A stretch of DNA of 64,000 nt from Antedon mediterranea (GCF_964355755.1 NC_092674.1:434001-498000), one strand, 5' to 3'; counted from the stretch's first letter, positions 1,018-46,500 are shown. Made by a program: numbers and translations. Notes: generated by a model not told the origin, from the sequence alone.

Positions 1018-4000
1018 GTTGGAGATGTGAGGTTGAAATGTTTAGTCGGACTTCAGAATCTCTACCTCGTAAGTGACTTGGCTTTAAAACTTGAACTCTT
1101 CACAAATCGGTTCAAAGACAGAATTGTGGCCATGACACTTGATAAGGAAACTGATGTTGCTGTACAGGCCATCAAGGTTGTCACTCTCATCTTAAAGTAA
1201 GTAACAATACTCAGATTTAAGTAAAGATTTGACACATGATTATGTAATGAGCAGCTAAACATGAATGTCCAATATTAAGTCTTTAAAGATATATTGTCCC
1301 CCTAACATTTTTTTTTTTTACATTTTTTGTTAACTATGCCATTTAAATGTCACATAATAGTTATTCACTTTCACCAAAAAAATGGATTGGAAGAAAAATT
1401 ATTTACCTAAAAAAATGTAATTTAAAGCAAAAAATACTAAAATTGTCTGTCAGACAATGGTTTTTGGTTAAAATTAACCTTTTTTGTTGTCTTACTGCAA
1501 TTGCCTATTTAAAGTATGATTTTATTAATCTTCATTTTTCATGAGGACAATACATCTTTAAGTATTAAGTCATTTCTTAACTAAAACTATAAATTTTAAT
1601 ATTTTTTTAATGTAGGTTTAATGAGGATATCTTATCGGCTGAAGATTGTGAAAATGTTTATCAACTTGTGTACTCAGCAAGTAGAGCTGTAGCACAGGCT
1701 GCAGGAGAGTTTCTCAATGAAAGACTGTTCAAGCGAGATGATACAGAGACAGGAAAATCCAAAAGGGCTGCTAGTAAAAGGCGTAGCGCCAATGCACCAC
1801 TTATCAAGGATCTTGTCCAGTTCTTTATAGAGAGTGAGGTAAGTTCTTGTAATACAGAAGGTCTCATAGTTTAGAGACGAATAAGATTGTTAAAATGAAG
1901 TAGCATTGTTGATATGTTATTGGGCGAGAGTTTAATAGAGTCTTATCAGATAAGGACTATAAACTGTAGGTTCAATGTACACATCTAGCTCATGTGCACT
2001 TTAAAGAACCTACTACATCTTTGGAGATGAGTAGGGGGTTATCCCAGTCTACTAGCTCACACGAGCCACTCTTGTGGACAGACAATCTCTAATTGGCAGC
2101 ACTGACATGACGTGACCCTTGAGGAGAAGTATGTAGTCATCTAAGTCAAAAATACCATGAGCAGTGATCACTGAAATGGTACTATATGAATTATTATTAT
2201 ATATTAATAATCAGTTTTCACACTTTCCGTAGCTTCATGAGCATGCTGCATACCTTGTAGATGCATTATGGGAAGTGAATGAGATGGTGAAAGATTGGGA
2301 TTGTATGACTGAGCTACTTCTAGAGGAACCAGGACGAGGGGAGGAACGTAAGTACACATCTTGATTGTCCTATTTTGTAAGCTTAACCCGACTCGCACTT
2401 TATTGGCAAGATTGATCAAGGTCAACATATAAAGCTCTGTCTACACTATCAAACTCTATGTGACAAAAAATGTGCTGTGCACATGATATGTCATATTTAA
2501 GCATATCACTACCATATTTGGGCACATCACACTTTTTGGTTTTTGTTTATCTCATTAACATAGGAAACAAATTAAAGGTTACAGTAAAATAAATTATTTT
2601 TTACAGCACTTGATGATCGCCAAGAAACAGCGCTGATAGAAATCATGGTTTGCGCTGTCCGACAAGCGGCTCAGGGTCATGCGCCCGTAGGTCGGGGGTC
2701 ATCCAAGAAGATTTTGTCAGCAAAAGAGAAGAAAGCTGTGCAAGACGACAAGATGAAGTTATCAGAGCATTTCATTGTCAAATTGCCCGATCTTCTTTCA
2801 AAAGTATGTTGCATCTTTTTTCTTGAGTCACGTTTACACTTACTTAGTCTGGCACATACCCGAACCTATATGATTAGATTCCTCCATAACTTGCTATCTG
2901 CCATTGTGACAACCAGTTCATCTCTCTGCATACCACCAGTATCCGTCTCTTGTTTTGCAAGCCCATGTTTTGACTGCAATGATTTCTTCTGTGAAGACAG
3001 TGTCCAGCAAATGTCAGTCTTCTTATTGTTTCTGTTTTATTTGTTCATTTACACAGTGCACAGAATATATGAGAACTGTAATCATATTCTATAATCATAA
3101 TCAATATATATATAAATCAATGATGTTGCGTAGCACTGTGTAAATTATATATAAATCATGTAAATTATAGAAACAGTGCTCATATTCGAAACATGATCTC
3201 ATAATCGCGTCGAGCATAGCTCATAGGCGAAAGTTCCGTATTTTTTAGTTGTATGAAAAAACCGTTGCGAATTAAAGTTGGAATTTATTCTGACTTGTTA
3301 AGCCTCCACTGATTGTGAGGCCGTTTGTTGTATGAGAGAATGTATCTGGTGGGTGAAAATCTGTGATAATACCATACATGGCTCTGTGGTCTAGTGGTAT
3401 GATACTCGCCCTGTAAGCGAGAGGTTGCAGGTTCGAATCCCGCCAGAGACATTTTTTCATACAACTAAAAAATACGGAACTTTCGCCAATGAGCTATGCT
3501 CGACGCGATAATAAGATCATGTTCCGAATATGAGCACTGTTTCTATAATTTACATGATTTATATATAAAACAGTGCTCATATTCATATCCAATCGAGTTT
3601 GAACACTACCATGAAAGCCCCAGTGGTCTAATGGTTAGGGCAACTGCATATCAAGCAGACGGTCCGAGTTCAAGTCTCGGTTGGGGCGACTTTTTCTCAT
3701 TCTCACAGATTTTCCTCATCTTTATCGTTTCAAATTAATTAATTAAATTTCAGTATATCACCGGGCGGTTTAGAATTAATGTTCTTTGCCTACTGTGTTT
3801 ATATATATATATATAAATCCAAAGGCAAATTACTGAAAAAATGACAATGCTGTGGGTATCAGTGGCTGGATCTCAATGGAGATACAAAAAAAAAGCAAAA
3901 AGCTAAATCAAAACGATAAAGTAAACAGCCAGAAAAGTTAGCAGAGCTTTCGGGCAACACTAGCCCTTCATCAGTGCAAGTCATATGTGTTTATATATAT

Positions 4001-7000
4001 AAAAGTATCTCTTCGGAGATCCCGCCTCGTGAATAAAAATACTGAAAGATGAGGGCGTATCAATTTGATCTCTGTTGCGCGTGCGTACAACTGAGGACTA
4101 GTGCTGTTCCGCCGTACCACCCGAGAATGTTAAAGAGTCGCTATCCAATCAAGTTTGAACAACCATGAAAGCCCCAGTGGTGTAATGGTTAGGACATCTG
4201 CATATCAAGCAGGCGGTCCGAGTTCGAGTCTCGGTTGGGGCGACTTTTTCTCATTCTCACAGATTTCCTCATCTTCATTGTTCAAATTAATTAATTAAAT
4301 TTCAGTATATCACCGGGCGGTTTCGAATTAATGTTCTTTGCCTACTGTGGTTATATATATATATATATATTATCAAAATATACTGTATAATGATAGCACT
4401 AAAATGATTAATATATTCTTCTTCTTCTCTTGTAGTATGGTATAGATTCCGACAAAGTAGCAAACCTACTGGAGATCCCACAACACTTTGATGTTGAGAT
4501 CTATACAACAAGTAGACTGGAAAAACACTTGGATTCACTCCTACGACAGATGAGAGATATAGTGGAGAAGCATACAGAAACTGAAGTATGTCAATTAATA
4601 TGTGTTCAAAAACAACCTGAGGGGTAGCATCATATGTATAGTAACGGAAGAATGAGATAAACACACGTATATAGTCAATGCAGCATATACAATTTCTTTT
4701 TCATGCACAATTTTGCACACATGACCACCCACTTAATGTCTTACCTGAAAGATACAGTAACAATTTTGCTCAAGTTCTTTTTTGTCTTATGTGGGTTCGT
4801 CCCGCTTTTATTTCATCATCTTTAAAAATATTTAAATACATTGCACATAATAAATAAGATCAACAAATATAAGTCATATTGTATAGTGCCATACAATAGA
4901 ACTAACATATAAGTCATATTGTATAGTGCCATACAATAGAGCTAACATATAAGTCATATTTTATAGTGCCATACAATAGAACTAACATATAAGTCATATT
5001 GTATAGTGCCATACAATAGAACTAACATATAAGTCATATTGTATAGTGCCATACAATAGAAGTAACATATAAGTCATATTGTATAGTGCCATACAATAGA
5101 ACTAACATATTTTTCAACCTATTTTTTGGTACAATTTTTGTAATCTTTAGTTATTTATTTTTCAAATTACCAACATTAGATTATGTTATTACCAACTTAT
5201 TGCAGGTTCTTGATGCTTGTTCTAAGACATATGAGAGCTTGCTTTGTGACCAGTACAACACCACACCTAAGGTTGAGGTCGCTAGAACAACGCTGTTTGA
5301 TAGTCTGGCAGAAAGACTTACCAGAAGCTATGAGAGTTTTGAAGCAGTAAGTGTTTTGAATTTATTTAAGTAATTAGGATTAATGAACCCCTAAGTGCAA
5401 AAAATACTTTATTATTTTAATATGTTATGTAATGTATGTAAGAAATTGTCTTATTTGTTTATGTACTTTCCGTTTTATGCGTAAAGGGTAGCCATAAAAC
5501 GACTTTTGCTTTTTTATTCCCCCCCCCCCCCCCCACCCTTTTTTTTATATTTATTTTAACCATTTATCTCATCAAATAATCTTTGCAATTTGGAAAATAA
5601 ATTGAATCTTGAATATACTAAATTGGATGAGGTGAATTGAGTAATTTACTTTCACTTACAGTAACATTATCATTATGATTCATGTGTATTTTTTTTAGAC
5701 TGACGAACCACATGATAATGTTATCTATGCTTTGTCATCAAGTCTGAAAAGAATTACAACGTTTTATAGGTAACATTATTTACTAATTTGTGAATTTTTT
5801 TAATTTAAGCACTAAGTATTGTAGCTAATGAATGCTTGGTGTAAAATCATCCAGGGTTGTGGCATTACTGTAGTATCACTAATTAGACCTTTAAAATCAT
5901 CCAGGGTTGTGGCATTACTGTAGTATCACTAATTAGACCTTTAAAATCATCCAGGGTTGTGGCATTACTGTAGTATCACTAATTAGACCTTTAAAATCAT
6001 CCAGGGTTGTGGCATTACTGTAGTATCACTAATTAGACCTTTAAAATCATCCAGGGTTGTGGCATTACTGTAGTATCACTAATTAGACCTTTAAAATCAT
6101 CCAGGGTTGTGGCATTACTGTAGTATCACTAATTAGACCTTTAAAATCATCCAGGGTTGTGGTATTACTGTAGTATCACTAATTAGACCTTTAAAATCAT
6201 CCAGGGTTGTGGCATTACTGTAGTATCACTAATTAGACCTTTAAAATCATCCAGGGTTGTGGTATTACTGTAGTATCACTAATTAGACCTTTAAAATCAT
6301 CCAGGGTTGTGGTATTACTGTAGTATCACTAATTAGACCTTTAAAATCATCCAGGGTTGTGGCATTACTGTAGTATCACTAATTAGACCTTTAAAATCAT
6401 CCAGGGTTGTGGCATTACTGTAGTATCACTAATTAGACCTAAAATCATCCAGGGTTGTGGCATTACTGTAGTATCACTAATTAGACCTTTAAAATCATCC
6501 AGGGTTGTGGCATTACTGTAGTATCACTAATTAGACCTTTAAAATCATCCAGGGTTGTGGCATTACTGTAGTATCACTAATTAGACCTTTAAAATCATCC
6601 AGGGTTGTGGCATTACTGTAGTATCACTAATTAGACCTTTAGAATCATCCAGGGTTGTGGCATTACTGTAGTATCACTAATTAGACCTTTAAAATCATCC
6701 AGGGTTGTGGCATTACTGTAGTATCACTAATTAGACCTTTAAAATCATCCAGGGTTGTGGCATTACTGTAGTATCACTAGTCATAGACCTTTAAAATCAT
6801 CCAGGGTTGTGGCATTACTGTAGTATCACTAATTAGACCTTTAAAATCATCCAGGGTTGTGGTATTACTGTAGTATCACTAATTAGACCTTTAAAATCAT
6901 CCAGGGTTGTGGCATTACTGTAGTATCACTAATTAGACCTTTAAAATCATCCAAGGTTGTGGCATTACTGTAGTATCACTAATTAGACCTTTAAAATCAT

Positions 7001-10000
7001 CCAGGGTTGTGGCATTACTGTAGTATCACTAATTAGACCTTTAAAATCATCCAGGGTTGTGGCATTACTGTAGTATCACTAATTAGACCTTTATTGTATT
7101 TTAATTTACTTTCTAAAGTTGTTTTACTTCTAATAATGTAATTGTAATAATTTAATGTTTTTTATACATGTACGTACTGCGCCTATGGACAATCATTGAT
7201 TGGATATATGCTGCTTTATAAATGCTTTTATTATTATTGTAATAATAATTATTTTCGTCTTTGAAGCACTGTTCGTGTACAAGGATAGAAATAAATCAAA
7301 TAATTTTAGAAATTAAAATCCCAATTCCATTTTGTTTGTAGTTCTTATATTATTTTTTTGTATTTGTGTTTAGCTGTCATGACCTCACCGGGTGGAATTT
7401 GTATGAGATGATATTTTTACTGATCAAGCAAGCTCCTAAACGTGGTGACGTACCTGAAGACATTTATGCCTCATCCATTGCGTGTGCACATTATGCTATA
7501 ATGTGGTATGTTAATAAGCTAGAAGACAAGAACCCCGACCAAGTAAGTCCAACATATTTAGTGTGAACTTAATTAATTTTTACATTGTTTCAAGATATGG
7601 AACTACTACAATATATAATATCGTTATTGTCCTAGCTTTCATGCAGGAAGACCACTCATTATTTTTATGTGAATTGTTCCTTTTTATTGTTTGAATGTTT
7701 GCCTGGCGAAATCAAATGGTGATATCAAGTTTACGGTACATCACATATATTTAGTTCTAAGAGAAACTCAACTGTTCTTTTCAACAATTGTTCCTTTATA
7801 TTGTGCTTAATGTATGACAGATGATAAAATCATAATATTTATGATTTTTTTCAGGATGAGATCAACCGACTCAAGAAGCGGGTTACTGAACTGATACACT
7901 TCTGCGCTATTCTTCTTATTGATCGAAATGAGACCATTAAACAGGAGGCTTTCACCACCATTGGTGACCTTCTGGTTGTATTTAGTAAGCAGCTAGGCTC
8001 TGATCTAACTTATAGCTCATTGATCTATGTGGCCAATGAAAACCTTCAACTTAGGATTGCAGATTTCATACAGGAAGAGGTATTTGTAGAAGAAGATGAT
8101 GATGGTAAGCTCTTAAGCATTGTCAACACTATGTGATGTACCCATATATGGACATGATGATGTCATATTGCTACCATATTTGGGAATATCACTACCATAT
8201 TTGGCACATTACTTTTTTTGTCAAACTAGTTTGATAGTGTAGACAGAGCTTAAGATATACAAATTTATTTATTTACTTTAACAACATTAAAAACATCACA
8301 TGAGTGTGCAAGGGAGTGGCAAGAGGTCGGAGGTCACCATACACAAACACTAAAGCATACTAACAAAAACATGAATCAATATATATATAATTTTAAAATT
8401 TTACCCCACAATATCTATGCTATTTTTACATGTGGATTGATGGTTGTAATCTGAATTTGTATTTTACCTGTTGTATTGTTTATGTTTCAAACTTTAAAGT
8501 GGCGGAAATTATCGCTGTTGGTTTTTTTATTTATTTCCACAAGATTTTATGAAGGTATAAAACATGTAACAATAAAATTAAAATAAATATAATGAATAAA
8601 ATATTACTTTCAGATGATGATGACGAAGGTGATGATTCACACAAGATTGAAGTTCTTCATAAACGTAGAAACCTTCTGGCTTCATTCTGTAAACTCATCG
8701 TGTTCAATATCATTGACATGCGAAATGCTGCTGGCATATTTAAACACTACATGAAGGTGTGTACTGTATTGTTTTATATAAACGTAGAAACCTTCTGGCT
8801 TCATTCTGTAAACTCATCGTGTTCAATATCATTGACATGCGAAATGCTGCTGGCATATTTAAACACTATATGAAGATGTGTTGCATCAGTATTGTTTTTA
8901 TTCTCACTCAGACCTTCGGCTAAAGACCCTCTTTTTTACAGAATTTCATTTAGCTTTTAACTTCATAAAACATTCTCAGTTTTTTTAATAGCTCTTTTAA
9001 AAAAGAAAATGTTATTTGCTTATGTATTATGTAAGATGTAATGAAGTGTTTTATATCTAATTTCAGTATTATAATGATTATGGTGACATCATTAAATTAA
9101 CATTGGCCAAATCAAGAGAAATCAACAAAATAAGCTGTGCAAAAACACTAGGACTTAGTCTCAGTCAGGTAATATTTATTTGTTATTGTCTGTTTAAACA
9201 CTAATATGTACCATGAATATTCAAACTATTTACTGTACTATTTTTTTACAAAGTTTTGTTTTTCCTATTTAATTTGATATTAATTATTTATCAGTTATTT
9301 CTTGAAATGAGAGAAATGGAATACGGTCAGGAAGGTAAAGCTGTAAACCAGATGAATGCTATCAAAGAACTGGCACGAAGATTCTCTCTCACATTTGGAC
9401 TTGATCAGATCAAGACAAGAGATGCTGTAGCGGCCTTGCACAAGTAAGTATCAACTCATTAAGTTACTTAGTTAAGTTCCAGTATTTGATTATTTGAAGA
9501 GTCTCTCTACAGGTAACTTTATCGTTTTTGCCAAAATCAATCAGATTCATCACCATCAATATTTGACTATCTGAAATTTTGTTTGCTTTTTTTTATAGAG
9601 AGGGTATAATGTTCAGTTTAACTCCTCTAGAGGACCGCCAAAATCCAGGAGGACCACCCCCTAATATTGGATACCTGGACGTTCTCAGTGAATTTACAAC
9701 CAAGCTTATGAAGCTGGATAAAAAGACGGTGTATGTATAGTAACATCTTGTTTTTATTCAATTTACTATTATTACAAAATATTAGAAACAGTGGATCTTA
9801 AAGTTTATTTATTTCATTATTTCGGCAGACTGGTCTACCTTGACCGCCAGCTCCGTCCAGAAATGTTAGAAAACACAGGTGATGAATGGTCAGCATTGAG
9901 AGCATACCGAAATAGCTTGATGCAGGGTGGGGATACTAGTTCTGATGTAAGTCGTCCACCACGCCCTCCTAAGCGCCCAAAACCTGGTATCAAAAGAAAG

Positions 10001-17402: not shown

Positions 17403-19081
17403 ATGTTCAAAAGTATTCAGTTTGCAAAAAACGCCATATTCACATTTCCTAAACAGACGGTGTTGATACCAGTCGGTCAGAAACGGGTATGTTTTCAGAC
17501 TGTGTTTATGTAGGCCGCACATCGCGAAGGGTGTGCTGTGTATTGAGACTAGATAGACAGTAAGATCAGTGAGTGGATTAACTTTTAGTCTCCATCCAGG
17601 GAGTTGTTTACAACTCGCCCTGGTCCATCCATCCAGGCAATGTTTATATATAGTGACTCATTTGAGTCAGCAGTAAAATAGGTGTTTTTATGGCAATTTT
17701 ATTTAAATCACATTTAAGTTAGTAAATAGTAAGTAATAGAAAATATCAATAAAAGATCTTGATTTTTGTTTATATTTTTGTAAATCAATTTAGGTCTAGC
17801 ACTGCAGCTGCCTCTATTGTCATTGTATTGTCTATATAATAATTAGTATACTAATTATTAGGCCTCTATGATAACATACTAATAGTATAATATAATACTA
17901 TTATAGTAAAAAGTAAATATATTTTTTAAATAAATAATAAAATTATAAAATACGGTTGCTTTAAATACGATACAATAAGAAGATTTTAATTTATGAAAAA
18001 GTTAGTACATGATTGATACTGTAGTTAATTTAATATTTCTGGTTGTACTCAATTTCTGATGCATTCAGACTGTAAGGATAAAGTTTCTTTGAGTTCCTGG
18101 TACAAAGTGTAGTTGCTGGTACTACAGTCTGTAACCATTATTATTACCATGATTGCATATTATGCCCTCCATTTTCAATAATTTATCAAATATGTACATT
18201 TATAAAAACTGATTTAATCAATTTTAATAAATTTTCCCCTTCAGCTTGCTGTTTGTTATGCATCCACAAAAGCTGATGATAAAATTACAAATACCAGGAT
18301 TGATGATAATCTAGTGCTGCACACGACGTCCTCGTCACAACCGGGGACACCGTTAGTTCTCCTGTACAGTTGGTTGGCTGCTAAACAGCGCCATCTTGAT
18401 CGATTCTCTAAATTGTATCTTAACAAAGGCTGTGATGTCGTATCTGTTCAAATAAAACCGCTGCAGTTGATACAACCTGCAAGTGGTTCCCAAAAAATTG
18501 CGGAAAAGTTGGTAGATTTTGTGCAAGGATCTGAACAAAACCAACGACCACTTCTGGTGCATACCTTTTCAGTTGGAGCATATCTACACAGTGAAACGCT
18601 ATCAAAGATGTCTGAACACGACACGAAGAACAAGACTGTGATAGTTGACAGGATCAAAGGTCAAGTATTTGACAGTGCAGTTGATTTGGATAAAGTACCG
18701 TATGGTACATCGAGGGCGCTTTTCAACAACCGTGTAGCTCAGAATACTGTTGAGGCTATGTTGAATGGTTTCTTCAGAATGACTCACAAACACACAATGT
18801 TGCATTATCAGAATGCACAAAAAGTGTTCTACTCTAACCCTGCTTCTACTCCTTTGCTTTTCTTTTATTCTAAAGTTGACCCAGTTGCTCCCGCCAGCAC
18901 CATCGATAGCTGCATCAACACTCTTAAACATGACCATGGCAAAGAAGTCTACAGTAAAGTCTTTGACAGCTCATCACATGTCAGTCACATGTATAAATAT
19001 CAAAGCGAATACATTGGAGCTCTAGAATCGTTCCTACACAGGTTAGGCTGCTTCAATGCAGATCAAACAACATCATCATAA
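17403..19081 (+). CDS. TMEM53-like (DUF829) alpha/beta-hydrolase-fold protein, 2 exons, ~306 aa
   Basis: Exon 17403-17486 (donor gtatgt) joins in phase 0 to 18245-19081. Motifs PLVLLYSWLAAKQRHL, LLVHTFSVG, GQVFDS, LFFYSKVDPV, SSHVSHM. Confidence 0.82.
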
Positions 19082-20206: not shown

Positions 20207-21410
20207 ATACTATTTATGATGCGTACCTCAATGTTCAGGTGCTAGTCTCTGAATTCAGTCTGCATCATAATACTATTTATGATGAGTACCTCAATGTTCA
20301 GGTGCTAGTCTCTGAATTCAGTCTGCATCATAATACTATTTATGATGAGTACCTCAATGTTCAGGTGCTAGTCTCTGAATTCAGTCTGCATCATAATACT
20401 ATTTATGATGGTGAGTACCTCAATGTTCAGGTGCTAGTCTCTGAATTCAGTCTGCATCATAATACTATTTAGATGAGTACCTCAATGTTCAGGTGCTAGT
20501 CTCTGAATTCAGTCTGCATCATAATACTATTTATGATGAGTATCTCAATGTTCAGGTGCTAGTCTCTGAATTCAGTCTGCATCATAATACTATTTATGAT
20601 GAGTACCTCAATGTTCAGGTGCTAGTCTCTGAATTCAGTCTGCATCATAATACTATTTATGATGAGTACCTCAATGTTCAGGTGCTAGTCTCTGAATTCA
20701 GTCTGCATCATAATACTATTTATGATGAGTACCTCAATGTTCAGGTGCTAGTCTCTGAATTCAGTCTGCATCATAATACTATTTATGGTGAGTACCTCAA
20801 TGTTCAGGTGCTAGTCTCTGAATTCAGTCTGCATCATAATACTATTTATGATGAGTACCTCAATGTTCAGGTGCTAGTCTCTGAATTCAGTCTGCATCAT
20901 AATACTATTTATGATGAGTACCTCAATGTTCAGGTGCTAGTCTCTGAATTCAGTCTGCATCATAATACTATTTATGATGAGTACCTCAATGTTCAGGTGC
21001 TAGTCTCTGAATTCAGTCTGCATCATAATACTATTTATGATGAGTACCTCAATGTTCAGGTGCTAGTCTCTGAATTCAGTCTGCATCATAATACTATTTA
21101 TGATGAGTACCTCAATGTTCAGGTGCTAGTCTCTGAATTCAGTCTGCATCATAATACTATTTATGATGAGTACCTCAATGTTCAGGTGCTAGTCTCTGAA
21201 TTCAGTCTGCATCATAATACTATTTATGATGAGTACCTCAATGTTCAGGTGCTAGTCTCTGAATTCAGTCTGCATCATAATACTATTTATGATGAGTACC
21301 TCAATGTTCAGGTGCTAGTCTCTGAATTCAGTCTGCATCATAATACTATTTATGATGAGTAGGCCTACCTCAATGTTCAGGTGCTAGTCTCTGAATTCAG
21401 TCTGCATCAT
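20207..21410. repeat. Minisatellite, 60-bp unit, ~20 copies
   Basis: Unit atactatttatgatgagtacctcaatgttcaggtgctagtctctgaattcagtctgcatcata. Confidence 0.98.
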
Positions 21411-21999
21411 ACAGAATAATTACCGTACTGTATATAATTTACACTTATGATACATAAACACTAGTACATAGAATTATTATTTAAATTACCACCAATTGGT
21501 CTTACCACCAGACACATGTTTTTGAAATAAAAATATTTTATTATTTCTACAAAGTACGAATCTATTCTTCCACCATTTTTTAATTCATTTTTTAATTGGT
21601 TATTTTGTAAACCAGACAATAAAATGATATAAAATAACATTTTTTTTTATATTGTTAATGTTAAATTACACATTTTGTACGATATTGTTGCTAATGTTAA
21701 ATTACACATTTTCATAGACTTTTCGAGTGTTACTCTGACAATGACTTGTAACATAATGACGCCCTCAACTTCTGCACAGACGATAACAAGTCTTGTTATC
21801 TATAACAAAACATTAATACAATTTTAATAACTCTACTCTCCTGATAGTGTTTTATGAATGATGTACTTATTAAGGTGTACAGATGATGATGACTTAATTC
21901 ATTACGTTACATTAAGGCATTTCGTTATACTGAATTAGATTGACAAGCTTCATATACTTTTGAAAATAATGAAAGGTAGAAACGCTTTAAAAAAAATTA

Positions 22000-23883: not shown

Positions 23884-33552
<9,669 letters not shown>

Positions 33553-36500
33553 GCAGCTACTAATTTTATTTTGATAATAAGGGGGTTGCCATTTGGTGGG
33601 TTGCCATTTGGTGGGTTGTCATTTGTGTACAGATATGTACGTGTGATTATTGATTATTTTTCCTTTGTAAAAGTTGCGAACCGAATGACCTTTATAGATC
33701 GTTACAAAGTAACTCAACAAAATATTATTGTTTTGTAAACCCACAAACGAAATCCGTTTTACTGTTGACTGAGCACAGAAAGGCACCTGCAGATGTATTG
33801 ATCTAAGGATGTTGCATCACGTTCTTCTGTAATGTCAATAAAACTTCTGACGAAATTCCAGATATTCTCAGTATTATTAGTTATTTATTTTAAACCCATC
33901 TTAGCATAAGACTATCACTGAATTGGTATAGTTTTTTTCGTACAATATTATTGTATTGGAAAGAAAAGTTTAAACGAATCAGCAATTTAGAAAGAATATT
34001 ATTTCAGGTATCGGCCAAACTGAAACATGGATAATAAAAGAAATAACATTTTGTATTATGAACACCAGGCTAGTGATCTGGAGGTTGTGGGTTCGAGAAT
34101 TACTTGCATATTTTTTCGCAAGTATTTTCTCAATGTACTTAGTATAAAGTAAACCTTACGTCAGAATAGGGCAAAACATCTGACCAATATTATTATTTAT
34201 TATACAGTATATTACAAATAGTATTATTATTTTTCTATCAAATGGTACAACAGATGTACTGGACCAAAGCCAATGTATTGCATCTTAAAGTTGTTCAGTA
34301 TTTAAATTTTCTAAATGTGTTTTTACATTTCACAGCACAACATATATAATATATTTTTTGATATTGGAGTCAGTTAACAATTTATATTGAATTTTAAATT
34401 TGTGTAAACCTTCTTTGTTTTGAAAATTAATGAATAATGAATAACCTATATTATATGTACGTAAAAATATAACATACATTTGTCATCCCCTCTTGGTTTC
34501 AATGCAATTGACCCGTCTTCCTGTATACGTTCTTTCTATAATATGTAGATACTAGAAAACAATACCATGACTTACTTTTCTATAGAGTATTAATTAACCT
34601 TAAATTTAAGAACAAAATATCGTTTTTGTTTATTGGTCTTTCACAGCTCTTAATCAATTTTTGTATGGTTTATTTTTATCCAAGGCTTATTAAACTTATA
34701 TAGTTGTTGTACATTCTTTTTAATTTCTAATTTAATAGAATTATTATAAGTGAACCAAGATTTTATGAAGAGTATACTTTTTAAATTGACATTTAGTCTT
34801 TATTAAGCTTTGTACTGTAGTTTGATGCATAATATTATTGTTTAGTAAACATGATGATTATTTTGTATAGGATTTTAAAGAAGGTATTTCCCTAAACCTA
34901 TTTAGGTACTTAATAAACTTGTGTGCTTAAGAGATAATTGCCAATTACTACCATTTTGATAATCCATTTTATTTATGAAAGTATCAGTTTAAATTCAGTA
35001 AACTGTTAATATGCCTACAGTCGGAATCAATTTATTTACTGAAGTACAGTAGTATTATGACAGTAATATTGTAGATGTTATATTAGATAAATTCACAAAC
35101 AAACATGAATTTCACTGATTATAAATGTTTTTTTTGGTTTGCATTTTATTGTATTTGGTGGTGATTTTTTCAAAAAAAGTACCAAAAAAAATTCAAATAT
35201 TATGCCATAATATGGCTATATATGCGCATGCTTTGTATCATCTTATACAGCCATATTAACTAGTTTTGTCTATAGTACAAGGATATTTTTTCGAAAAATA
35301 CTCAAAATATCGACTTTTTAAAATTCCATTATTATGCGATAATATGGCTATATATGTGCATATATTGCTTTGTATCATCTTATAGAGCCATATTAACCAG
35401 TTTTGTCAAAAAATAAAAAGGTTGAACTTTAGTCAATTTTGGAAAAAATCCCTGTAAAAATGACCATTTTTCGACCCTTTCATTTTTTGATATAATTAGT
35501 TATTATAGCATAATAAACATGCGCAGAGACGAATATTAGTTTCTGCGCATGTCAATTATGGTATATTAACCATTTGAAAATTTTTTTATAATTAGTTACT
35601 ATAGCATAATAAACATGCGCAGAGACGAATATTAGTTTCTGCGCATGTCAATTATGCTATAGTAACCAGTTTTATCAATTTTTTGACATAAATGGTTACT
35701 ATAGCATAATAAACATGCGCAGAGACGAATATTAGGTTCCGCGCATGTCAATTATACTATACTAACCAGTTTTATCGAAAAATAAAAAGGTCGAAAATTT
35801 GTCATTTTTGGAAAAAATCCCTGTACTATATATAGTACAGAGAAAATTTCGAAAAATGACAATTTTTCGACCCTTTCATTTTTAGATATAATTAGTTACT
35901 ATAGCATAATAAACATGCGCAGAGTCGAATATTTGGTTCTCCGCATGTCAATTATAGTATAATAACCAGTTTTATCGAAAAATAAAAAGGTCGAAAATTG
36001 GTCATTTTTTGAAAAAATTCCTGTATTATAGTACAGGGAAAATTTCGAAAAATGACCATTTTTCGACCCTTTCATTTTTTGATATAATTAGTTACTATAG
36101 CATAATAAATATGCGCAGAGATGATATTAGGTTCTGCGCATGTCAATTATGCTATATTAACCATTTGAAAAAATTTTTATATATAATTAGTTACTATAGC
36201 ATAATAAACATGCGCAGAGACGAATATTGGGTTCTGCGCATGTCAATTATACTATAGTAACCAGTTTTATCGAAAATAAAAAGGTCGAAAATTGGTCATA
36301 TTTTGAAAAAATCCCTGTACTATAATACAGGGAAAATTTCCAAAAATGACCATTTTTTGATATTAGTTACTATAGCATAATAAACATGCACAGAGACGAA
36401 TATTAGTTTCTGCGCATGTCAATTATGGTATATTAACCATTTGAAAATTTTTTTATATATAAATAGTTACTACAGCATAATAAACATGCGCAGAGTCGAA

Positions 36501-37638
36501 TATTGGGTTCTGCGCATGTCAATTATACTATAGTAACCAGTTTTATCGAAAAATAAAAAGGTCGAAAATTGGTCATATTTTGAAAAAATCCCTGTACTAT
36601 AGTACAGGGAAAATTTCCAAAAATGACCATTTTTCGACCCTTTTATTTTTTGATATAATTAGTTACTATAGCATAATAAACATGCGCAGAGACGAATATT
36701 AGGTTCTGCGCATGTCAATTATGCTATAGTAACCATTTTTTAAAAATTTTTATATATAATTAGTTACTATAGCATAATAAACATGCGCAGAGACGAATAT
36801 TAGTTTCTGCGCATGTCAATTATGCTATAGTAACCAGTTTTATCAATTTTTTGACATAAATGGTTACTATAGCATAATAAACATGCGCAGAGACGAATAT
36901 TAGGTTCCGCCTATGTTAATTATACTATACTAACCAGTTTTATCGAAAAATAAAAAGGTCGAAAATTTGTCATTTTTGGAAAAAATCCCTGTACTATAGT
37001 ACAGAGAAAATTTCGAAAAATGACAATTTTTCGACCCTTTCATTTTTAGATATAATTAGTTACTATAGCATAATAAACATGCGCAGAGTCGAATATTTGG
37101 TTCTGCGCATGTCAATTATAGTATAATAACCAGTTTTATCGAAAAATAAAAAGGTCGAAAATTGGTCATTTTTTGAAAAAATTCCTGTACTATAGTACAG
37201 GGAAAATTTCGAAAAATGACCATTTTTCGACCCTTTCATTTTTTGATATAATTAGTTACTATAGCATAATAAATATGCGCAGAGATGATATTAGGTTCTG
37301 CGCATGTCAATTATGCTATAGTAACCAGTTTTATCTATTTTTTGACATAAATGGTTACTATAGCAAAATAAACATGCGCAGAGTCTTAAAATTCAATTAT
37401 TTTGTGATAATATGGCTATATATGCACATATTGCTTTGTATCATCTTATAGAGCCATATTAACCAGTTTTGTCGAAAAATAAAAAGGTTGAAATTTAGCC
37501 AATTTTGGAAAAAATTCCTGCACTATAGTATAGGGATTTGGCGCGCCAGGGATTTTCCCGAAAAATGCCCAAAATATAGACTTTTTAAAATTCAATTATT
37601 TTGCGATAATATGGCTATATATGCACATATATTGCTTT

Positions 37639-40290
37639 TTATATAACACCTAAATAAATTCCTGTCATTTGATTGGACGATTGTGGGTCACATGGCGTGC
37701 AATAGTACGCACTATTAAACGATCGTTTAATAGTACTTTTTGAAACATTTTTGTGTATGAAAAAAAAAACGTCTCGCGGATAAAAAAAAACCATAATTAG
37801 CTTAGATAAGTTCCAATTGTCTGTCGAAGTTTTGCCTTTCAGCCAAGCTAGTACTACTAGGCTACTAGGTCTAGCCTAGGCCATGCTAGTATTAGGCTAG
37901 ACCTAGCCTAGGCGTGTTAGCCTTGCTAGGCCTAGGATTGTTTGGTCGTTTGTTGACATAATTAACACAAAAGTAGGTGTGTTTACGAAATCCATATAAA
38001 TATAACATTTAATATAAAATTATTAAAAACCAAATGTTACTGTTTTTAATCAATGTGTGTGAATGAAATGTAGTAAGCTTTGGCTAGGGCTACCTTTTAT
38101 TTGATTCAAATAACTAGAATTTATTTAGATGTTATATAAAACAAATAATGAATGTTTTGTATTCGTGTAATGGTACAAATAATGGCACTTGGTGCATAAA
38201 CTTTTGTATTGATAAATGCGTTCCAGTTAAAAAAGTGAAAATCTACCCTAACAACAAGCCATGGATCACGAAAGGCGTTAAATTACTGTTGTGTGAGAAA
38301 CGTAAAGCCTTTAAGATGGGCGACTCTAATCGTATGAAAATATTGACTAGAGAGATTAAATCTGAAATAATGAAACAGAAGAACATTTATAGGAAAAAAG
38401 TTGAACATAACTTCAGGTCTAATAATATGAAACAAGTTTGGCAGGGTATGAAACTTATGAGTGGTTACACAAACGGTGGTAATACACCCACCTCGATTCC
38501 GAATGTTACTGTGCAATATGTTAATGAGTTAAATGAATTTTATAACCGTTTTAATGTTCATGATTTAAAAAAAGAAAGAGAGGCTCTATTTAGCTTGTCG
38601 GGTGACTGAAGATGATCCCAAATTTAGTATAAGCATTTCTGATGTACATAACGAATTCATGAAACTCAATTCATCGAAGGCTGCTGGGCCGGATAGAATC
38701 CCACCACGAGTACTTAAGGTCTGCTCTCCTCACCTTGATGGTATATTTACATTTATTTTCAATATGTGTCTTTCTTATCATGCGTTCCCGGATATTTGGA
38801 AACTTTCATGCATAATACCGGTACCTAAAAAACCTAAAATTAACAGCATGAATGATTTGAGACCCGTTGCACTCACGTCTGTCGCGATGAAAATATTGGA
38901 ACGTATTATTTTAAAAATTATGCAACCTTATGCTGAAAAAGTGTTAGACCCGTTGCAATTTGCTTACCGATCACTCCGTAGTACCAGTGATGCGATTTAT
39001 TTTAAATTACATAAATTGTATTCACATCTAGATAATGTAAAGAAAGGCCACTCAGCACGTATTATGTATTTTGATTTTCAATCTGCGTTTAATACCATAC
39101 AACCCCATATCTTAGCAGACAAAATGTTGAATATGGAGTTTCCCCGTCCGATTGTTCGTTTAGTTTTAAATTTCATTTGTGATAGAAAACAATTTGTTAA
39201 TATTAATGGTGTTAAGTCAGAAATCGTAACCTCTGACACCGGTGTTCCTCAGGGTACTATCAACGCACCTAAATTATATTCCCTGTATACGGCGGATTAC
39301 AGATCTTTAAATGATGAGCTTTGCCCCGTTGTTAAATTCGCTGATGACACTAGTACTATTGGTCTCATAGTTTCAAACAATGATGAAAATTATCGTAGCG
39401 AAATACAAAGATTTGTTAAATTTTGTGACGATAATTATCTCCAAATAAATGCATCAAAAACAAAGGAGATGATCATTGATTTTAGGACTAAACATAAATT
39501 TAATTTTCAACCAATCACTATCAAAGGTAAAGAAATTGAAATTGTTGACCAGTACAAGTATCTAGGAATTGTTTTCAATGATAAACTGAGTTGGGGAGAC
39601 CATATAGACTTCATCAGCAAAAAATTAAGTCCCAGAATGTATTGTATGAGAACTTTATATAAATTTAACTCCTGTGATTTGATGTTACTTTCGTTCTATA
39701 GATCCGTTATATGTAGTGTTTGGACGTATTGCCTCTCCTGTTGGGCTGGTAATGTTACCGGAGGGAATAAAGGACGCCTTGAAACTTTCATCCGTCGGGC
39801 TGGTAAAATGATTGGTCTGGAACTGCCTTCCTTTACCGATGTGCACCTAGAACACCTCCAGAAAGATTTCGAACGCATTGAGTCGGATGCCTCTCATCCT
39901 CTCCACAAAGTGATCATAGACCAACTTAATCCAAGTGGTAGATTGAGGCTCCTCAGTGTGAAAACAAATCGATTTGCTAAATCCTTTATTCCCTCCGGTA
40001 TCATCCAGTACAACAGGAAGTCAAGAAGATAATTTTATATTGTAATTTTTTAGATGTTTTTATATGAATGGTTTTATGCTATTTTTGTTTTTATAGTGTT
40101 TTCTTTGTTATTATGACGAGCAATGAATTTCCTTTTTGAGGATCAATAAAAGTTATCTTATCTTATCTTATCTTGGTGAATGATGAAAGGTTATATAAAC
40201 TCAGCGTTGCCTCGTTGATATAACCTTTCATCATTCACCTCGTGCCATTATTTGTACCATTACACTCATAAACATTCATTATTTGTATAA
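37639..40290. mobile_element. Non-autonomous double-hairpin element (Crypton-like), split by a LINE
   Basis: Inverted repeat tatataacacctaaataaattc / gaatttatttagatgttatata; a second long hairpin has arms at 38140-38194 + 40179-40198 and 40219-40287. The Crypton assignment is by resemblance only. Confidence 0.65.
38195..40171 (+). mobile_element. 5'-truncated non-LTR retrotransposon (Rex1/Babar-like) with reverse transcriptase
   Basis: ORFs 38148-38609 and 38602-40032 (one frameshift) with PNNKPWIT, KAAGPD, DLRPVALTS, DFQSAFNTI, GVPQG, KFADD, YKYLG; (TCTTA)n tail; TSD CTTGGTG at 38188-38194 and 40172-40178. Confidence 0.93.
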
Positions 40291-40509
40291 TATCATCTTA
40301 TAGAGCCATATTATCCAGTTTTGTCGAAAAATAAAAGGGCCAACATTTTTCATTTTCTGGCATACAGGATTTGGTTGTAAACACAAAAACAATGTATTTT
40401 ATATAAATGTTATGTTTTTATTGGCTTATAATGAAATCAGACTAATAAAATAAGTACTGTACTAAGTGAATTTGAATGTGGATGAATTATTACTGCAGTA
40501 CAGTCATCA

Positions 40510-43500
40510 TTACTGGAGCACACCATGTCTTGACAAAGATTTGACATGAGGGTTGAAATGATCAGGTAACTGTAAAAATAAAAGAAAATTTGATTGCATA
40601 TAATTTTAAAAGAAATACTGCAATACAGCAATGATTTGTAGTTATAGTAGTGCCCAATTCGGATTAGGTCCTCTGTGGACTAACAGCAGGAACAGTGCTG
40701 CGCCTACTACGAACAACAGGAGTTGAGATGGAGCAGTACCACCGGGATAAACCTTTACTGTTCCGAAAGATGAACTGGGTTTTTTAAAGTGCACACAAGC
40801 CAGATGTAAAGACTTATTCTACCATCGGTACGGTCGATGAGCCTTGAACCGCTCGGCCACAAAACTTAAAACAAAGTAATGTTCTAATTTGAATAAAACA
40901 AGTGTGTTTACCTTGGCACCAATACGTGAAAGGTACCGATTTCTAAGAGCAAATGCACTTCTTGGGCGAATAGGTGATGTAATACTATGTGATGGCAGTT
41001 CTTTTTCAAGTCTTGAAAAGAAGGAAAAAGGGAGTAAAATACAGTACAACTCTTAAAGATGCATTGTCTCTCAAACACATTTTTATAAAATCAGACTTTG
41101 AATAGGTTATTTTGCAGTTTTAATAAAGTTATTCACTTTCGTAGAAAAAAACCACCAAACAGATATATTGATTTAACTTAGAAGAAAGACAATTATTTTA
41201 ATCCATCAAGCACTCTGGCTCGAAAATTGTCTTGCTTGTCACTTTGATAAAATGGGTAAAATACAAACAGTACGACACCAAGGGGTAAAATACAAAAGCA
41301 ACAAATGCAAACATTACACAAAAAGGTTAAAACATGGCAGTAGTAAAAAATATCATAAATATGAAGACAAAAAAAACCACAGTGATTGAACATTAATTAT
41401 TATTATGATTTGACATGTTAAATACTTACTCTCGTTTGGCAAGGCTTGCTTTTTGAACTTCTCGTTCTTTTGCAGACATATTTAGAAATCCTCCTTCTGA
41501 TTGGTCGACTAAATATAAAATTAAACTGGCAATCAAGGAAGCTAAAATACAAAACAAAATTGTTTAGAATTTACAAATTATTTACTTTTATGTACGTATA
41601 AAACAAACAAAATAACAGCATTTAAAATTACAAAAAAAAGATTGATTGAAAAAACTAAAAGCCAGGGGCTTAAGCGTTACGCCACTGGGAGTAATGCTAT
41701 TTTGTCTGGGTACTGCTTGATAAATACATGACACATTTTACTCATCATACTGTAGGTATTATGTTGTCAAAGCAAAGAGTCTTACCACAAAGCATGACTG
41801 AGAAGAAAACCTCAAGAATGAGATAACCACTTTCATCTAGAATCTTTCCAGCAATCATAGGTACAACAGCAAGGCCTAGATTTTGAATTGACTGCATGCT
41901 GCAATACACAAAAAACGATACAAAGTCCATTATGATAAGTAAAGCTCAGTCTACACTATCAAACTTGATGATGATGATGATGTCATACCACTTCCATACT
42001 TGAGCATATCACTACCATATTTTGGCACATCACACTTTTTTTGTCAAACTAGTTTGAACCCCTCCTTTGGGACACACCTATTAAAGGGACACTTTCCCAT
42101 CAAACGAACAAGGAGAAATAGATGCTTTTTTTTATTCAATATTTCACCAGAGGCTCTTCACAAGCACAGCCTTAGTCTTGAGGAGCCTTTGCAACATATA
42201 ACAAATATGAGCTTAGCAAATATAAATTCTTTAACACTAGCCAAGGCATATTCAGGGGACAATTTATTTGGCCCAGAAGATGCCTCCTTAATAGAGGTTC
42301 TATTGTAGTATCTGAATGACTCACAATCCATAAGATGTCCCCAACTGATGTTCAGGCATGATGTAAGCTACAATGGGCCACAAGGCACAAGCTAGTAAAG
42401 AATATGCAATACCCATTACACTCTGCAAAGAACGATACATAGTTGGTAATTAACAATATTTATGTTTGCATTTTCTGTAATATGAGAATTTGTTACAGAA
42501 TGATGATACCTACCATTGTGATAAATGGATTGATGAATGTAAATGCTAACATAAAGTGGGCAACAATTGTAAGTACAACGCCAGACACAACCCAGAATAT
42601 GTTTCTACCGGTCTTATCAACAGCAACACCAAATACAGGAGACGCTCCAGCGGAGATGAAATATACCAAACTAAAAAAAAACAAACTAATTACAACAATT
42701 TGCTGTGAAGAGTTGTTTTTGCTCATTCTTGATATTCTGTATGTTTCTCTATGTTTACTTGTTTAACATTTCTATTTTTATTATGCATTTTAATGTAAAT
42801 ATTCTGTAAATCAGCATCGACTGTGATGATGATATGCAATAAAACATTTTTTTTTAAATTAAGTAAAATATTTCACTGTACAGTATTTGTACCATAGAAT
42901 GGTAATGGGAGGTATACTCTAAATGGTTGGTTTGTATTAAGATGTGAGAGGCATGTTTATGACTGCAGGACTCTACATAATATATGTACCTATTATATGT
43001 ATATAATAATGTATAGTATTACACTCACCTATTTACTAAAAGGGCATCTGCTGCTGAAAAGTCCCACTTGTCCTCAAAAAATATACTAAAAATACAAAAA
43101 AATAGATACACAAAATATATTAATACATGTTTTAAACAGTAAATATCAAAATTCAACTACTCTTTTAAGACATTTTGTAACAGTAATTAAATATTTTACT
43201 GAAGAATTTGTTTTTCTCGGAAAAAATAAAGCTGATTTGATTTTGTGTAGCCTCCTCCTCCCATTTGATCTTAAATTCAAATCTTGGTTCTGTCATAATA
43301 CAAGACATAGGGGCACATTGCAAACAATTTTTAATATCTTAATCTCAATATATGTGGAAATCTTTTTAGGTCAAATATATAGACAAATATATAAGGTAAA
43401 TTATTTGGCAGTGATATTTGCTGTGCTAGAATTATACAGTATTTCAACCCTGGTATTGGTACTACCAAGTTAAAATGCTACTATATGTACTAAAATCTAA

Positions 43501-46500
43501 CATGTATACTTACACTCCAAGACCTATGAATGTGACACATATTATGAATATAAGTCAATTTGAACCCAGTACCCTGATATTCATAGACATCAAGTTAAAA
43601 CTCAACTATGTGTACTTAACCTGTATACTTACACTCCAAGACCAATGAATGGAAAAACAGCCACATAGTATGTGACACATATTATGAATATAAGCCATAA
43701 GGTCAATGGGAAATCCTTGACATCACTCAATTTGATCACCTCTCCAGTTTCACCAGAACCTTTCTTAGTAATGCGAGCAGCTCTTGCATCAAAGAACCAC
43801 AAAGCTAAACCACATATCATTGACAGGATACAGAAACCAGAACCTAATGAACAAGAACAAGACTGGTGTGATGGAAGATTAAGGAATCAGTTAGAAAGGA
43901 AGAACAAGACTGGTGTGATGGAAGATTAAGGAATCAGTTAGAAAGGAAGAACAAGACTGGCGTGATGGAAGATTAAGGAATCAGTTAGAAAGGAAGAACA
44001 AGACTGGTGTGATGGAAGATTAAGGAATCAGTTAGAAAGGAAGAACAAGACTGGTGTGATGGAAGATTAAGGAATCAGTTAGAAAGGAAGAACAAGACTG
44101 GCGTGATGGAAGATTAAGGAATCAGTTAGAAAGGAAGAACAAGACTGGTGTGATGGAAGATTAAGGAATCAGTTAGAAAGGAAGAACAAGACTGGTGTGA
44201 TGGAAGATTAAGGAATCAGTTAGAAAGGAAGAACAAGACTGGTGTGATGGAAGATTAAGGAATCAGTTAGAAAGGAAGAACAAGACTGGTGTGATGGAAG
44301 ATTAAGGAATCAGTTAGAAAGGAAGAACAAGACTGGCGTGATGGAAGATTAAAGACCCCTTCCCTGCAATTTTGGACGTTTTTTGGAAAATAATACATAT
44401 ATATCACTTTAAAAACATTAAACCATGTCATTCCTTGTCTTAAATGTACGTTTTATGGTAAATTATGATAAAAAGTGAGAAACAATGCACTACCTAAGTA
44501 GCTCGCGGCGATCGACCTCTCGTGGACGGTCTCAGGCCTAGCCTAGCTAGGCTTAGTTTTGTAGGCCTAGCTGGTAAACATCGGTAACGTACGAACATCG
44601 TACGCTAGCTATATACCTAGCCTGACGTTGTATAGTTGCTGCATTAATTGTCTTTCTATTTTTGCCAGACTCCGTTGATACAAATTGGGGAAAACCCGGT
44701 ATTTTCGCTGAAAAGTTAGGAGTCTTCCATTTGTTTTGGCTTCACGATCGATCGAAAAGTGGGCGAATTACAGGTGAAAAACAACAATATCAATCCGCGC
44801 GCAATGCATTTTGGGATTTATAGCGGGCCGCTATAATTATTAAAATCGATTTATTTTTCACATTTTTAACCGTTTAAAGACGAAAAAAGTTATCGCAATA
44901 GGACCATATAGTATTATTTTTACATTAAATATAGTTTGTGATCTTAAATTAGATCTAAAAAACGTAGGGAATGGGGCTTTAAGGAATCAGTTAGAAAGGA
45001 AGAACAAGACTGGTGTGATGGAAGATTAAGGAATCAGTTAGAAAGGAAGAACAAGACTGGTGTGATGGAAGATTAAGGAATCAGTTAGAAAGGAAGAACA
45101 AGACTGGTGTGATGGAAGATTAAGGAATCAGTTAGAAAGGAAGAACAAGACTGGTGTGATGGAAGATTAAGGAATCAGTTAGAAAGGAAGAACAAGACTG
45201 GTGTGATGGAAGATTAAGGAATCAGTTAGAAAGGAAGAACAAGACTGGCGTGATGGAAGATTAAGGAATCAGTTAGAAAGGAAGAACAAGACTGGTGTGA
45301 TGGAAGATTAAGGAATCAGTTAGAAAGGAAGAACAAGACTGGTGTGATGGAAGATTAAGGAATCAGTTAGAAAGGAAGAACAAGACTGGCGTGATGGAAG
45401 ATTAAGGAATCAGTTAGAAAGGAAGAACAAGACTGGTGTGATGGAAGATTAAGGAATCAGTTAGAAAGGAAGAACAAGACTGGTGTGATGGAAGATTAAG
45501 GAATCAGTTAGAAAGGAAGAACAAGACTGGTGTGATGGAAGATTAAGGAATCAGTTAGAAAGGAAGAACAAGACTGGTGTGATGGAAGATTAAGGAATCA
45601 GTTAGAAAGGAAGAACAAGACTGGCGTGATGGAAGATTAAGGAATCAGTTAGAAAGGAAGAACAAGACTGGTGTGATGGAAGATTAAGGAATCAGTTAGA
45701 AAGGAAGAAGCAGCAACGAATCATAAACACAGTTCACACGAATAATACAAATTAGTTATAATGTTACAAATAATAATAAACAAATAAACATGGTTTTCAA
45801 AATAATAATAACACATGCTGAAAGCAATCATTAATGCATCATTTTGAAATTGGCCAATGCGAGATGAATAAAGAAATTGAATTGAAATTGATGTCATATA
45901 TTTTGTGAATTATTGATATCATTTAATAAAGTGCATAAGTTCATCAAACTTACCAACCCACAGAGCAATTGCTAACTTCTTGTATTCTGGCAAAGCGTCT
46001 GACGTGGCATCATAAATTGGTTTCATAACATTCATGTTAACTGTACTACCCTGTAATCATTTCAAAATAAATGAATATTGAATAAAACATTTAGTAAATT
46101 CAAATAAACATTTATTCTTTCAATTGTATCAAGAAATGTTAACACAAAATTGAATCATAAAGCTCTGTCTACACTATCAAATTAGTTTGAAAAGTTTCAA
46201 AAAGTGTGATGTGACCAAATATGGTAGTGATATGACATCATCATGTCCATATATGGGCACATCACAATTTGTTGTCACATACAGTTTGATAGTATAGACA
46301 GAGCTTTAGAGTCGTTGTGAATGAAATAATTGAAAATGATGGTGGTCAGGGATTTTATTCCAGCAGGAGAACACTATAATGTAGCTTTTAAATTTAAAAA
46401 TGAACTTACAACTCTTGAGAAACTAAGTTGAAGACCAAAGACCATGTTCAGTTCTTTGTTTTTAAACCAACTAACGGCATATGTGTTCTGAGCCACTGCT

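Follow-up and report, generated by a model that had tools for sequence, protein, structure and literature searches.

Within a 64-kb window of animal DNA (Antedon mediterranea, NC_092674.1:434001-498000, GC content about 33%; "the window" means this whole stretch, and positions count from its first letter), an intron of a STAG/SA cohesin gene holds a nest of short repeats parted by (TA)n runs, among them tRNA-like genes and a hammerhead ribozyme motif. The question that this locus raises is whether the repeats are modules of one mobile family, as an initial annotation had proposed, or several families that share a target, and what moves them. We consider it likely that they are three separate, high-copy, non-coding families, here called A, DB and C, and that the reverse transcriptase (RT)-endonuclease of a Penelope-like element (PLE), acting in trans, copies them into (TA)n.

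We compared the window with contigs from eight of 24 sequencing runs (X1, X5, X6, X10, X11, X12, X20 and X21). For X1, X5, X6 and X10 the best 15 of 199 joints, 24 of 1,672 loose ends and 32 of 40,816 contig pieces were considered; for X11, X12, X20 and X21 these were all 6 joints, 24 of 116 loose ends and 32 of 232 pieces. The annotated placing of all modules in one STAG intron is borne out: Pfam HEAT_SCC3-SA positions 32-96 and 97-147 are matched in the exons on either side, and a contig of X5, a run that behaves like RNA, connects 2607-2803 directly to 4436-4587. The annotated order (A, an A/B chimera, C, B) names real pieces; it missed the segment D (4002-4141), and the "chimera" is a 17-bp stub of A beside a cut DB copy. 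The features are as follows.

2804-4435, plus strand: host intron of the STAG/SA cohesin gene (spliced contig X5 record 16; Pfam HEAT_SCC3-SA in both flanking exons)
3104-3114, no strand: TA run, left end of the nest (sequence)
3115-3145, minus strand: one-sided 31-bp tail of A, between the two TA runs of the monomer (its reverse complement forms the X11 loose end behind 3568; X11 and X12 have a 3107/3256 joint; X10 record 12)
3146-3261, minus strand: inverted 5'-cut copy of the A 3' end, annotated as a left terminal inverted repeat (113/117 identical to 3452-3568)
3256-3567, plus strand: direct copy of A, ending in TA run 3560-3567 (X11 record 1)
3380-3451, plus strand: tRNA-like cassette of A (read by ARAGORN as Thr(TGT); has A and B boxes, with a T6 run following)
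3568-3584, minus strand: 17-bp inverted stub of the A 3' region, head to head with the cut DB copy (17/17 to 3526-3542)
3586-3799, plus strand: 5'-cut DB copy, beginning 31 nt ahead of the tRNA-like cassette 3617-3688 (against 4142-4352: 201 identities, 10 mismatches, 4 gaps)
3800-3815, no strand: TA run separating the DB 3' end from the C 3' end (sequence)
3816-3981, minus strand: C, retrozyme-like monomer, a few bases short at its 5' end (window copies and run contigs)
3862-3930, minus strand: candidate RNA domain of C, made of a closing stem and an AUCUC/GAGAU hairpin and similar to the DB junction (suggestive)
3941-3977, minus strand: minimal type I hammerhead motif (descriptor; features as in PMC4209133)
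3982-4001, plus strand: 4-nt filler, 6-nt remnant of a DB 3' end and TA run 3992-4001 (63/63 identity to 27632-27570; X11 loose end)
4002-4351, plus strand: whole DB monomer, with D head, D middle, tRNA-like cassette 4171-4242, T5 and B 3' part (ARAGORN Asp(ATC); X12 record 16 spans 4046-4343)
4352-4370, no strand: TA run, right end of the nest (sequence)
27464-27570, plus strand (hammerhead sense): C copy cut inside stem II, CUGANGA core lost (sequence comparison)
27570-27840, minus strand: DB copy cut within the tRNA; past a TA junction it continues as a D-head tail of 49 nt, 27570-27618 (43-nt TA run at the cut end)
48047-48216, minus strand: C monomer with TA runs on both sides; a 25-nt gap takes out GAAA and the cut site (sequence comparison)

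The reading of the nest as one modular family is not supported: A, DB and C each form a self-closing monomer, their depths differ about tenfold, and the joins between families vary from place to place. A is a head-to-tail monomer of about 365 bp with an internal tRNA-like cassette, its length following from X11 record 1 (375 nt), which makes one full turn of A with about 10 nt of overlap. The order around the circle, read in X10, X11 and X12, is the 3' arm, a TA run, the 31-bp piece, a second TA run, 13 nt and the start of the core at 3256. The head-to-tail junction was found in three of the eight runs (X10 record 12; X11, by record 1 and a joint with 36 letters on its short side; X12, with 22 letters), and in X6 the letters preceding 3256 are not those of the arm. 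The inverted repeat of A (117 bp, 3145-3261 and 3452-3568, 97% identical) is therefore not a pair of terminal repeats: its left arm bears the 31-bp tail, its right arm lacks it, and in the circle the tail precedes the core. The inverted and direct copies meet over an A6 overlap at 3256-3261. The tail region folds no better than shuffled sequence (z -0.8), and A carries no CUGANGA on either strand and so no hammerhead such as a retrozyme would have. Two "opposite strand" joints of X1 within A (3224/3456 and 3333/3481) were considered as new inversion points and not counted, a plain deletion or duplication within the arm being possible.

The DB monomer measures about 360 bp with its TA run; D is its 5' half and continues unbroken into the tRNA-like cassette and the B 3' part. 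Its head-to-tail junction, from the end of B through TA to the head of D, lies at 3986-4048 and recurs at 27632-27570, and it is found again in X11, where the loose end before 3986 is B 3' sequence and a joint connects 3760 with 3997. The tgtgtt in which C had been said to end is where this 63-nt match begins; it is the DB remnant, since C is whole at 48.1 kb and other C copies continue differently. Past 3981, C runs into a short stretch and a TA-like run in X21, and similar continuations are seen at 48.2 kb and in the loose-end majorities of X1 and X6 (72 and 73 contigs, agreement about 0.5). DB, like A, holds no hammerhead. A permuted (type II or SGC) hammerhead in D, an idea prompted by PMC10085705, was rejected: its CUGANGA (4091) lacks a proper stem II, position 4091 is changed from C to T in contigs of X20 and X21, the stretch does not fold well (z +0.4), and the likeness of D to the hammerhead of C was equalled by 230 of 2000 shuffles.

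C is the shortest monomer, about 185 bp, since at 48047-48206 there are 160 nt plus the 25-nt gap between two TA runs; retrozymes are hammerhead monomers of 170-400 nt (PMC7229834), and C falls within that range. Its hammerhead has a 3-bp stem I, CUGAUGA (3974-3968), an extra A, a 4-bp stem II with G10.1-C11.1 and GAAA (3951-3948), and a palindromic AGCU in the place of stem III. On the minus strand GC, UC and stem I come after GAAA. Cleavage is predicted between 3944 and 3943 and would need a dimer. The annotated PLE- or retrozyme-type minimal hammerhead is upheld by a descriptor, written after the site was seen, that matches once in the window and in none of 200 shuffled windows; an Rfam scan of the window did not detect a hammerhead at 3941-3977. 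It had been called antisense; it is so solely to the neighbouring tRNA units and is sense to the RNA that C itself would produce. A diverged C variant retains GAAAGCUC with altered neighbours (loose ends 3887 and 3892). Searches for the family elsewhere gave no match to a 23-nt C pattern in a metagenome collection, and four matches to a 17-mer, with unrelated flanks, in a viral collection. By analogy, C likely acts like an animal retrozyme and would be a new, member-like case of the PLE-derived retrozymes.

The three tRNA-like cassettes have Rfam tRNA scores of 55 (3380-3451), 52 (3617-3688) and 49 bits (4171-4242) against a cut-off of 29, and ARAGORN calls of Thr(TGT), Asp(ATC) and Asp(ATC). 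Each contains an A box and a B box and is followed within 2 bases by a T6 or T5 run, and the annotation of internal tRNAs with T-run terminators, unlike the heads of short interspersed elements (SINEs), stands: the cassette starts 124 nt inside A and 169 nt inside DB, not at a 5' end from which it would be transcribed into the body. We take the first to resemble eukaryotic tRNA-Pro and the other two tRNA-Gln/Arg, and an AUC anticodon is, to our knowledge, not normally used; on these grounds the cassettes are unlikely to act in translation. Elsewhere in A and in the whole DB copy the sense strand has no T4 run, a weak sign given that 54 of 221 GC-matched tiles lack them likewise and the copy at 3586 has one.

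Depth was taken as summed contig depth over exon depth, a rough figure that is not a copy number and whose bins straddle module borders. From the inferred 3' end inward, X1 depth falls from 2,650 to 1,400 for A, from 12,400 to 4,000 for DB and from 20,600 to 7,600 for C, with similar orders in X6. We use depth solely as a sign that A, DB and C are very abundant and unequal, about tenfold apart. The ratios of X5 to X1 depth (A 0.004-0.007, D 0.01-0.02, B 0.03-0.05, C 0.05-0.08, exon 0.16) were not used as evidence of expression. In X12 and X20, two very small libraries, the depth of C at 3821-3906 exceeds that of A or DB by a factor of hundreds, and diverged C variants are present.

All three families are tied to TA runs, and tied by one end. 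Seven of the eight TA runs of at least 10 nt in the window sit at the three repeat loci (10 of 24 for runs of at least 8 nt). The end that touches the run is the 3' end, taking A and DB in tRNA sense and C in hammerhead sense, and the opposite end is cut, the pair at 27.5 kb being the exception; the cut pieces end at 3261, 3584, 3586, 3981, 27464 and 27797. TA runs flank whole C (48.1 kb) and whole DB (3992-4370) on both sides, and most other pieces are cut on one side. The nest 3104-4370 can be divided into three units, each with a TA run at both ends and, between them, an inverted cut piece followed by a direct piece: A with its tail and A; the 17-bp A stub and DB; C and the DB remnant with whole DB. 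Two of the three inverted/direct pairs thus join different families head to head. Among the joints listed, X6 (3981-3610) and both X1 and X6 (3917-4223) also connect C to B in this geometry, at other breakpoints.

The annotated recurrence of the modules beside (TA)n holds for the copies at 27.46-27.80 and 48.05-48.20 kb; the hammerhead is broken in both, and the junction at 27.5 kb is a different one. There the join of B and C runs through 49 nt of D, and C lacks its first 46 nt, unlike the junction at 3.8 kb. We infer that DB, carrying a 49-nt tail, inserted close to the 3' end of an existing C copy, so that the cut DB 5' end meets the old TA run of C.

This geometry is the one described for PLEs. 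Their insertions are partial tandems that have lost 5' sequence, lie next to an inverted 5' copy and bear a tail of 30-40 bp at one end (PMC8557442); here, 5' truncation with a kept 3' end, head-to-tail units and an inverted 5'-cut copy with a one-sided tail (3115-3261; 49 nt at 27570-27618) are all found. A bias to (TA)n is reported for Naiads and almost all Hydra families, the Hydra families carry hammerheads, and two sea-cucumber families prefer (TA)n (PMC8557442). A purified PLE protein, a predicted dimer, nicks AT-rich DNA and extends both strands (Frangieh et al., PMC11167929); synthesis begins at two internal sites of the RNA, which delimit the tail, and insertion is equal with a dead hammerhead (PMC11167929). 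Retrozymes are now tied to PLE pseudo-LTRs (10.64898/2026.07.22.740005).

We therefore favour target-primed reverse transcription by a TA-targeting PLE protein, in which RNAs of tRNA sense from A and DB and of hammerhead sense from C, in tandem or circular form, would serve as templates. The partner would nick (TA)n, and reverse transcription would begin inside the RNA at its UA run or 30-50 nt past it, the latter leaving the tail. Each monomer carries its own TA run, so insertions would leave new TA targets and pile up. By analogy the partner is most likely a Hydra-clade PLE, a clade that combines hammerheads with TA targeting and is known in an echinoderm, and otherwise a Naiad. A and DB are likely hammerhead-less, tRNA-bearing variants that work like non-autonomous PLEs. 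The initial annotation was thus right to see non-autonomous, mobile, (TA)n-associated units with an unseen TA-targeting partner, and wrong to join them in a single family. Its word "modular" is fair in a limited sense. In X11 the B 3' part stands behind a different tRNA-like head, and in X1 a join leads from B to A inside the tRNA (4212-3431), which indicates that heads and tails are exchanged among families. Further subfamilies at 3711, 3777 and 4212 (joints and loose ends) likewise show the B 3' part with another ending or another tRNA-like head, and a B/A hybrid within the tRNA.

A promoter with a terminator right behind the tRNA cannot alone give RNA of monomer length, and the depth of D is close to that of the tRNA, so templates must exceed the stretch from tRNA to tail; they might be read-through products of tandem units, or circles. 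The cassette might provide RNA polymerase III (Pol III) starts with read-through, or cut points for RNase P and RNase Z. We lean slightly towards a cassette that helps to produce template RNA in one of these two ways, as Pol III promoter or as host-RNase cut point; hammerhead cleavage is dispensable in vitro (PMC11167929), so the cassette may also be a mere passenger.

C and DB may in addition share an RNA fold of about 75 nt, to judge from sequence comparison over a region picked after inspection. In this candidate domain a closing stem GGCNG/CNGCC varies as U-A in C, G-C in DB and U-G in the 27.5-kb copy of C, and the adjoining AUCUC/GAGAU hairpin has different loops in C and DB. The hairpin block is alike at 17 of 22 positions, which 6 of 300 shuffles reach, and the score of a 72-nt alignment was reached by 4 of 2,000 shuffles. 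The DB junction folds better than shuffled sequence (z -3.3 and -2.8), the C version weakly so (z -1.5 and -1.4); MAFFT did not align the two in register, and A has no such domain. The shared hairpin pattern gave 8 viral and 85 metagenome matches, which we treat as chance: none of the 85 has (TA)3 within 150 nt, and none has the upstream block.

Several observations weigh against PLE-dependent copying of three separate families. A PLE protein with RT and GIY-YIG, the autonomous element for which a search had been suggested, was not found among the 52 of 236 window open reading frames (ORFs) that were scanned, and an empty site or target duplication was not readable. The head-to-tail A junction is not among the 15 of 199 joints listed for X1, the best holder of the repeats, and X10 and X11 carry them at low depth, possibly as relatives or carry-over. 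Two whole C monomers in tandem were not observed: the window has none, and the run contigs are too broken to show them. The hammerhead is intact in one of three window copies, and its stretch folds no better than shuffles (z +1.0). The B 3' part also stands behind other tRNA-like heads (X11 joint 3624-4246), which can mimic a truncation slope. Finally, both cross-family joints of the nest hold an ATAT 4-mer, possibly left-over target. This makes side-by-side insertion at least as likely as priming on both strands, and we regard separate, adjacent insertions as somewhat the better account of the cross-family pairs; priming of both target strands on two different RNAs is rather less probable.

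Head-to-tail junctions through TATA are also the product expected of a recombinase circle, and a tyrosine recombinase of the CryptonV type, whose circles would enter (TA)n by recombination at a TATA core and come to lie within one another's junctions, is the alternative that survives best. Some CryptonV families insert specifically in microsatellites (PMC8869645), and our units are joined through TATATA with A-rich and T-rich sides and show circular junctions. Such a recombinase should leave whole units, yet five pieces (3261, 3584, 3586, 3981 and 27464) end in a cut that has no TA run, the inverted cut copy with its one-sided tail and the PLE-type hammerhead would go unexplained, and Cryptons are generally of low copy (PMC8969392); we find this account improbable. 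Slightly less credible still is a division in which A is a TIR (terminal inverted repeat) DNA transposon, a miniature inverted-repeat transposable element (MITE) with a captured tRNA gene, B a SINE dependent on a long interspersed element (LINE), and only C PLE-related. The long inverted repeat around the cassette would suit a MITE, an arm-to-core depth ratio of about 2 in A fits a two-armed element equally well as ours, and a B 3' part behind different heads recalls SINE tails, with a LINE RT at hand at 38.6-40.0 kb. A MITE, however, has symmetric, fixed TIRs, and in X10, X11 and X12 the core of A is preceded by tail instead of arm; the tRNA lies 170 nt inside DB with T5 directly after it; and A, DB and C are no more like the 3' end of the LINE than shuffles are, sharing no end with it. 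Least probable is one composite family, its tRNA units and antisense hammerhead unit moving as a fixed cassette, for although B adjoins C at two of the three window loci, C-B joins occur in X1 and X6 and C and DB may have an RNA domain in common, each family is self-closing, at 48.1 kb C occurs by itself, B-C junctions vary both in sequence and in which ends they bring together, and depths differ roughly tenfold, or hundreds-fold for C in X12 and X20.

Returning to PLE-dependent copying, we put forward a bolder version of it tentatively, and think it more doubtful than not. Units such as A and DB would be "tRNA retrozymes", PLE-dependent monomers that rely on a whole tRNA gene instead of a hammerhead to supply or process the template RNA and that arose in this genome at least twice, with different tRNAs; the conserved RNA fold common with the hammerhead family would serve the PLE protein as a handle; and a dimer of that protein, priming the two strands of (TA)n on two different RNAs, would weld unrelated families head to head in one event, which would also explain the inverted 5' copies of PLEs. 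How PLEs form tandem and inverted insertions is a named open question (PMC8557442). If the cross-family pairs are single events, two RNA templates were used, and the families are natural labels for counting. Hitchhikers with a tRNA and no hammerhead would extend the cargo mobilised by PLEs beyond retrozymes and would be wrongly annotated as tRNA genes, SINEs or MITEs; judged by rough depth, A and DB would have added thousands of tRNA-like cassettes to the genome.

Other repeats and genes surround these loci. Immediately left of the nest lies a separate repeat (2838-3050; X1 depth about 80-160 times exon by bin), whose minus-strand frames, with frameshifts, bear what we take to be a likeness to the C-terminus of an RTE-type LINE; a Pfam scan of it found no match, and an Atlas search of 2869-3036 yielded nothing usable. 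The LINE fragment at 38118-40032 has a 487-aa RT frame with RVT_1 and a weak PF09004, about 50% identical to many unnamed proteins; its RT was considered as the PLE partner and rejected, its relatives combining RVT_1 with PF09004. A MITE-like repeat of 110-155 bp with inverted ends has five copies, 72-87% alike (2430-2540, 8121-8255, 29583-29727, 41940-42057 and 46157-46310). A complex satellite (35187-37642; units of about 100, 200 and 296 bp, an internal hairpin, TATATA runs) has a related piece at 40233-40339, and highly homogeneous minisatellite arrays (periods 40-71, 97-99% matches) occupy 45-818, 4867-5110, 5842-7093, 20207-21411 and 43853-45709. A TMEM53-like ORF (18221-19078, gene span 18218-19081) is 100% identical over 98% of its length to Antedon mediterranea TMEM53 and 70% identical to that of Anneissia japonica, pointing to a feather star as the probable host. 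A protein kinase exon (29828-30124) lies near the 27.5-kb repeat copy, and a gene for a rhodopsin-type G protein-coupled receptor lies at 50453-51478.

Among known systems, tRNA-derived SINEs have A and B boxes, a tRNA fold and a 3' microsatellite and are non-autonomous, as are A and DB, in which, unlike SINEs, the tRNA is internal and whole with a T run at once behind it and the monomers are circularly closed. CryptonV elements (via PMC8869645) are alike in targeting microsatellites and in units joined through a short core; the one-sided truncation, inverted cut copies, hammerhead and thousands-fold depth seen here set our families apart from them. C resembles the animal non-LTR retrozymes, which are non-coding, high-copy, head-to-tail monomers of about 170-400 nt with a type I hammerhead and are proposed to be non-autonomous PLE derivatives (PMC7229834; 10.64898/2026.07.22.740005). 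Its hammerhead motif differs from theirs in being minimal and, by prediction, dimer-dependent instead of canonical; A and DB differ in having an internal tRNA-like cassette and no hammerhead, and all three monomers contain the (TA)n target. The minimal hammerheads of PLE pseudo-LTRs, thought to be dimeric, are marked by an extra base between 9 and 10.1, G10.1-C11.1 and a palindromic 15.2-16.2 (PMC4209133); C has the same marks and no stem III, in a short monomer with TA on both sides (48.1 kb) and no ORF seen. With Hydra-clade and Naiad PLEs (PMC8557442) our families share the (TA)n bias, 5' truncation, partial tandems, inverted 5' copy and one-sided tail, and non-autonomous head-to-tail derivatives are known for Chlamys, e.g. 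MRC1 (PMC8557442). Unlike in those PLEs, RT/GIY-YIG was not found among the ORFs scanned here, a search of the supplement to PMC8557442 met no mention of tRNA, and inverted and direct pieces can come from different families. The titles and abstracts searched describe neither tRNA-bearing PLE-dependent units such as A and DB nor cross-family inversions, though Repbase and Dfam may hold the families; C is member-like among PLE-derived retrozymes. The architecture had been annotated as an undescribed one; its TA target, truncation, inverted copy and tail are the known PLE pattern (PMC8557442, PMC11167929), and what goes undescribed beyond that pattern, within the literature searched, is the internal tRNA cassette and the head-to-head joining of different families.

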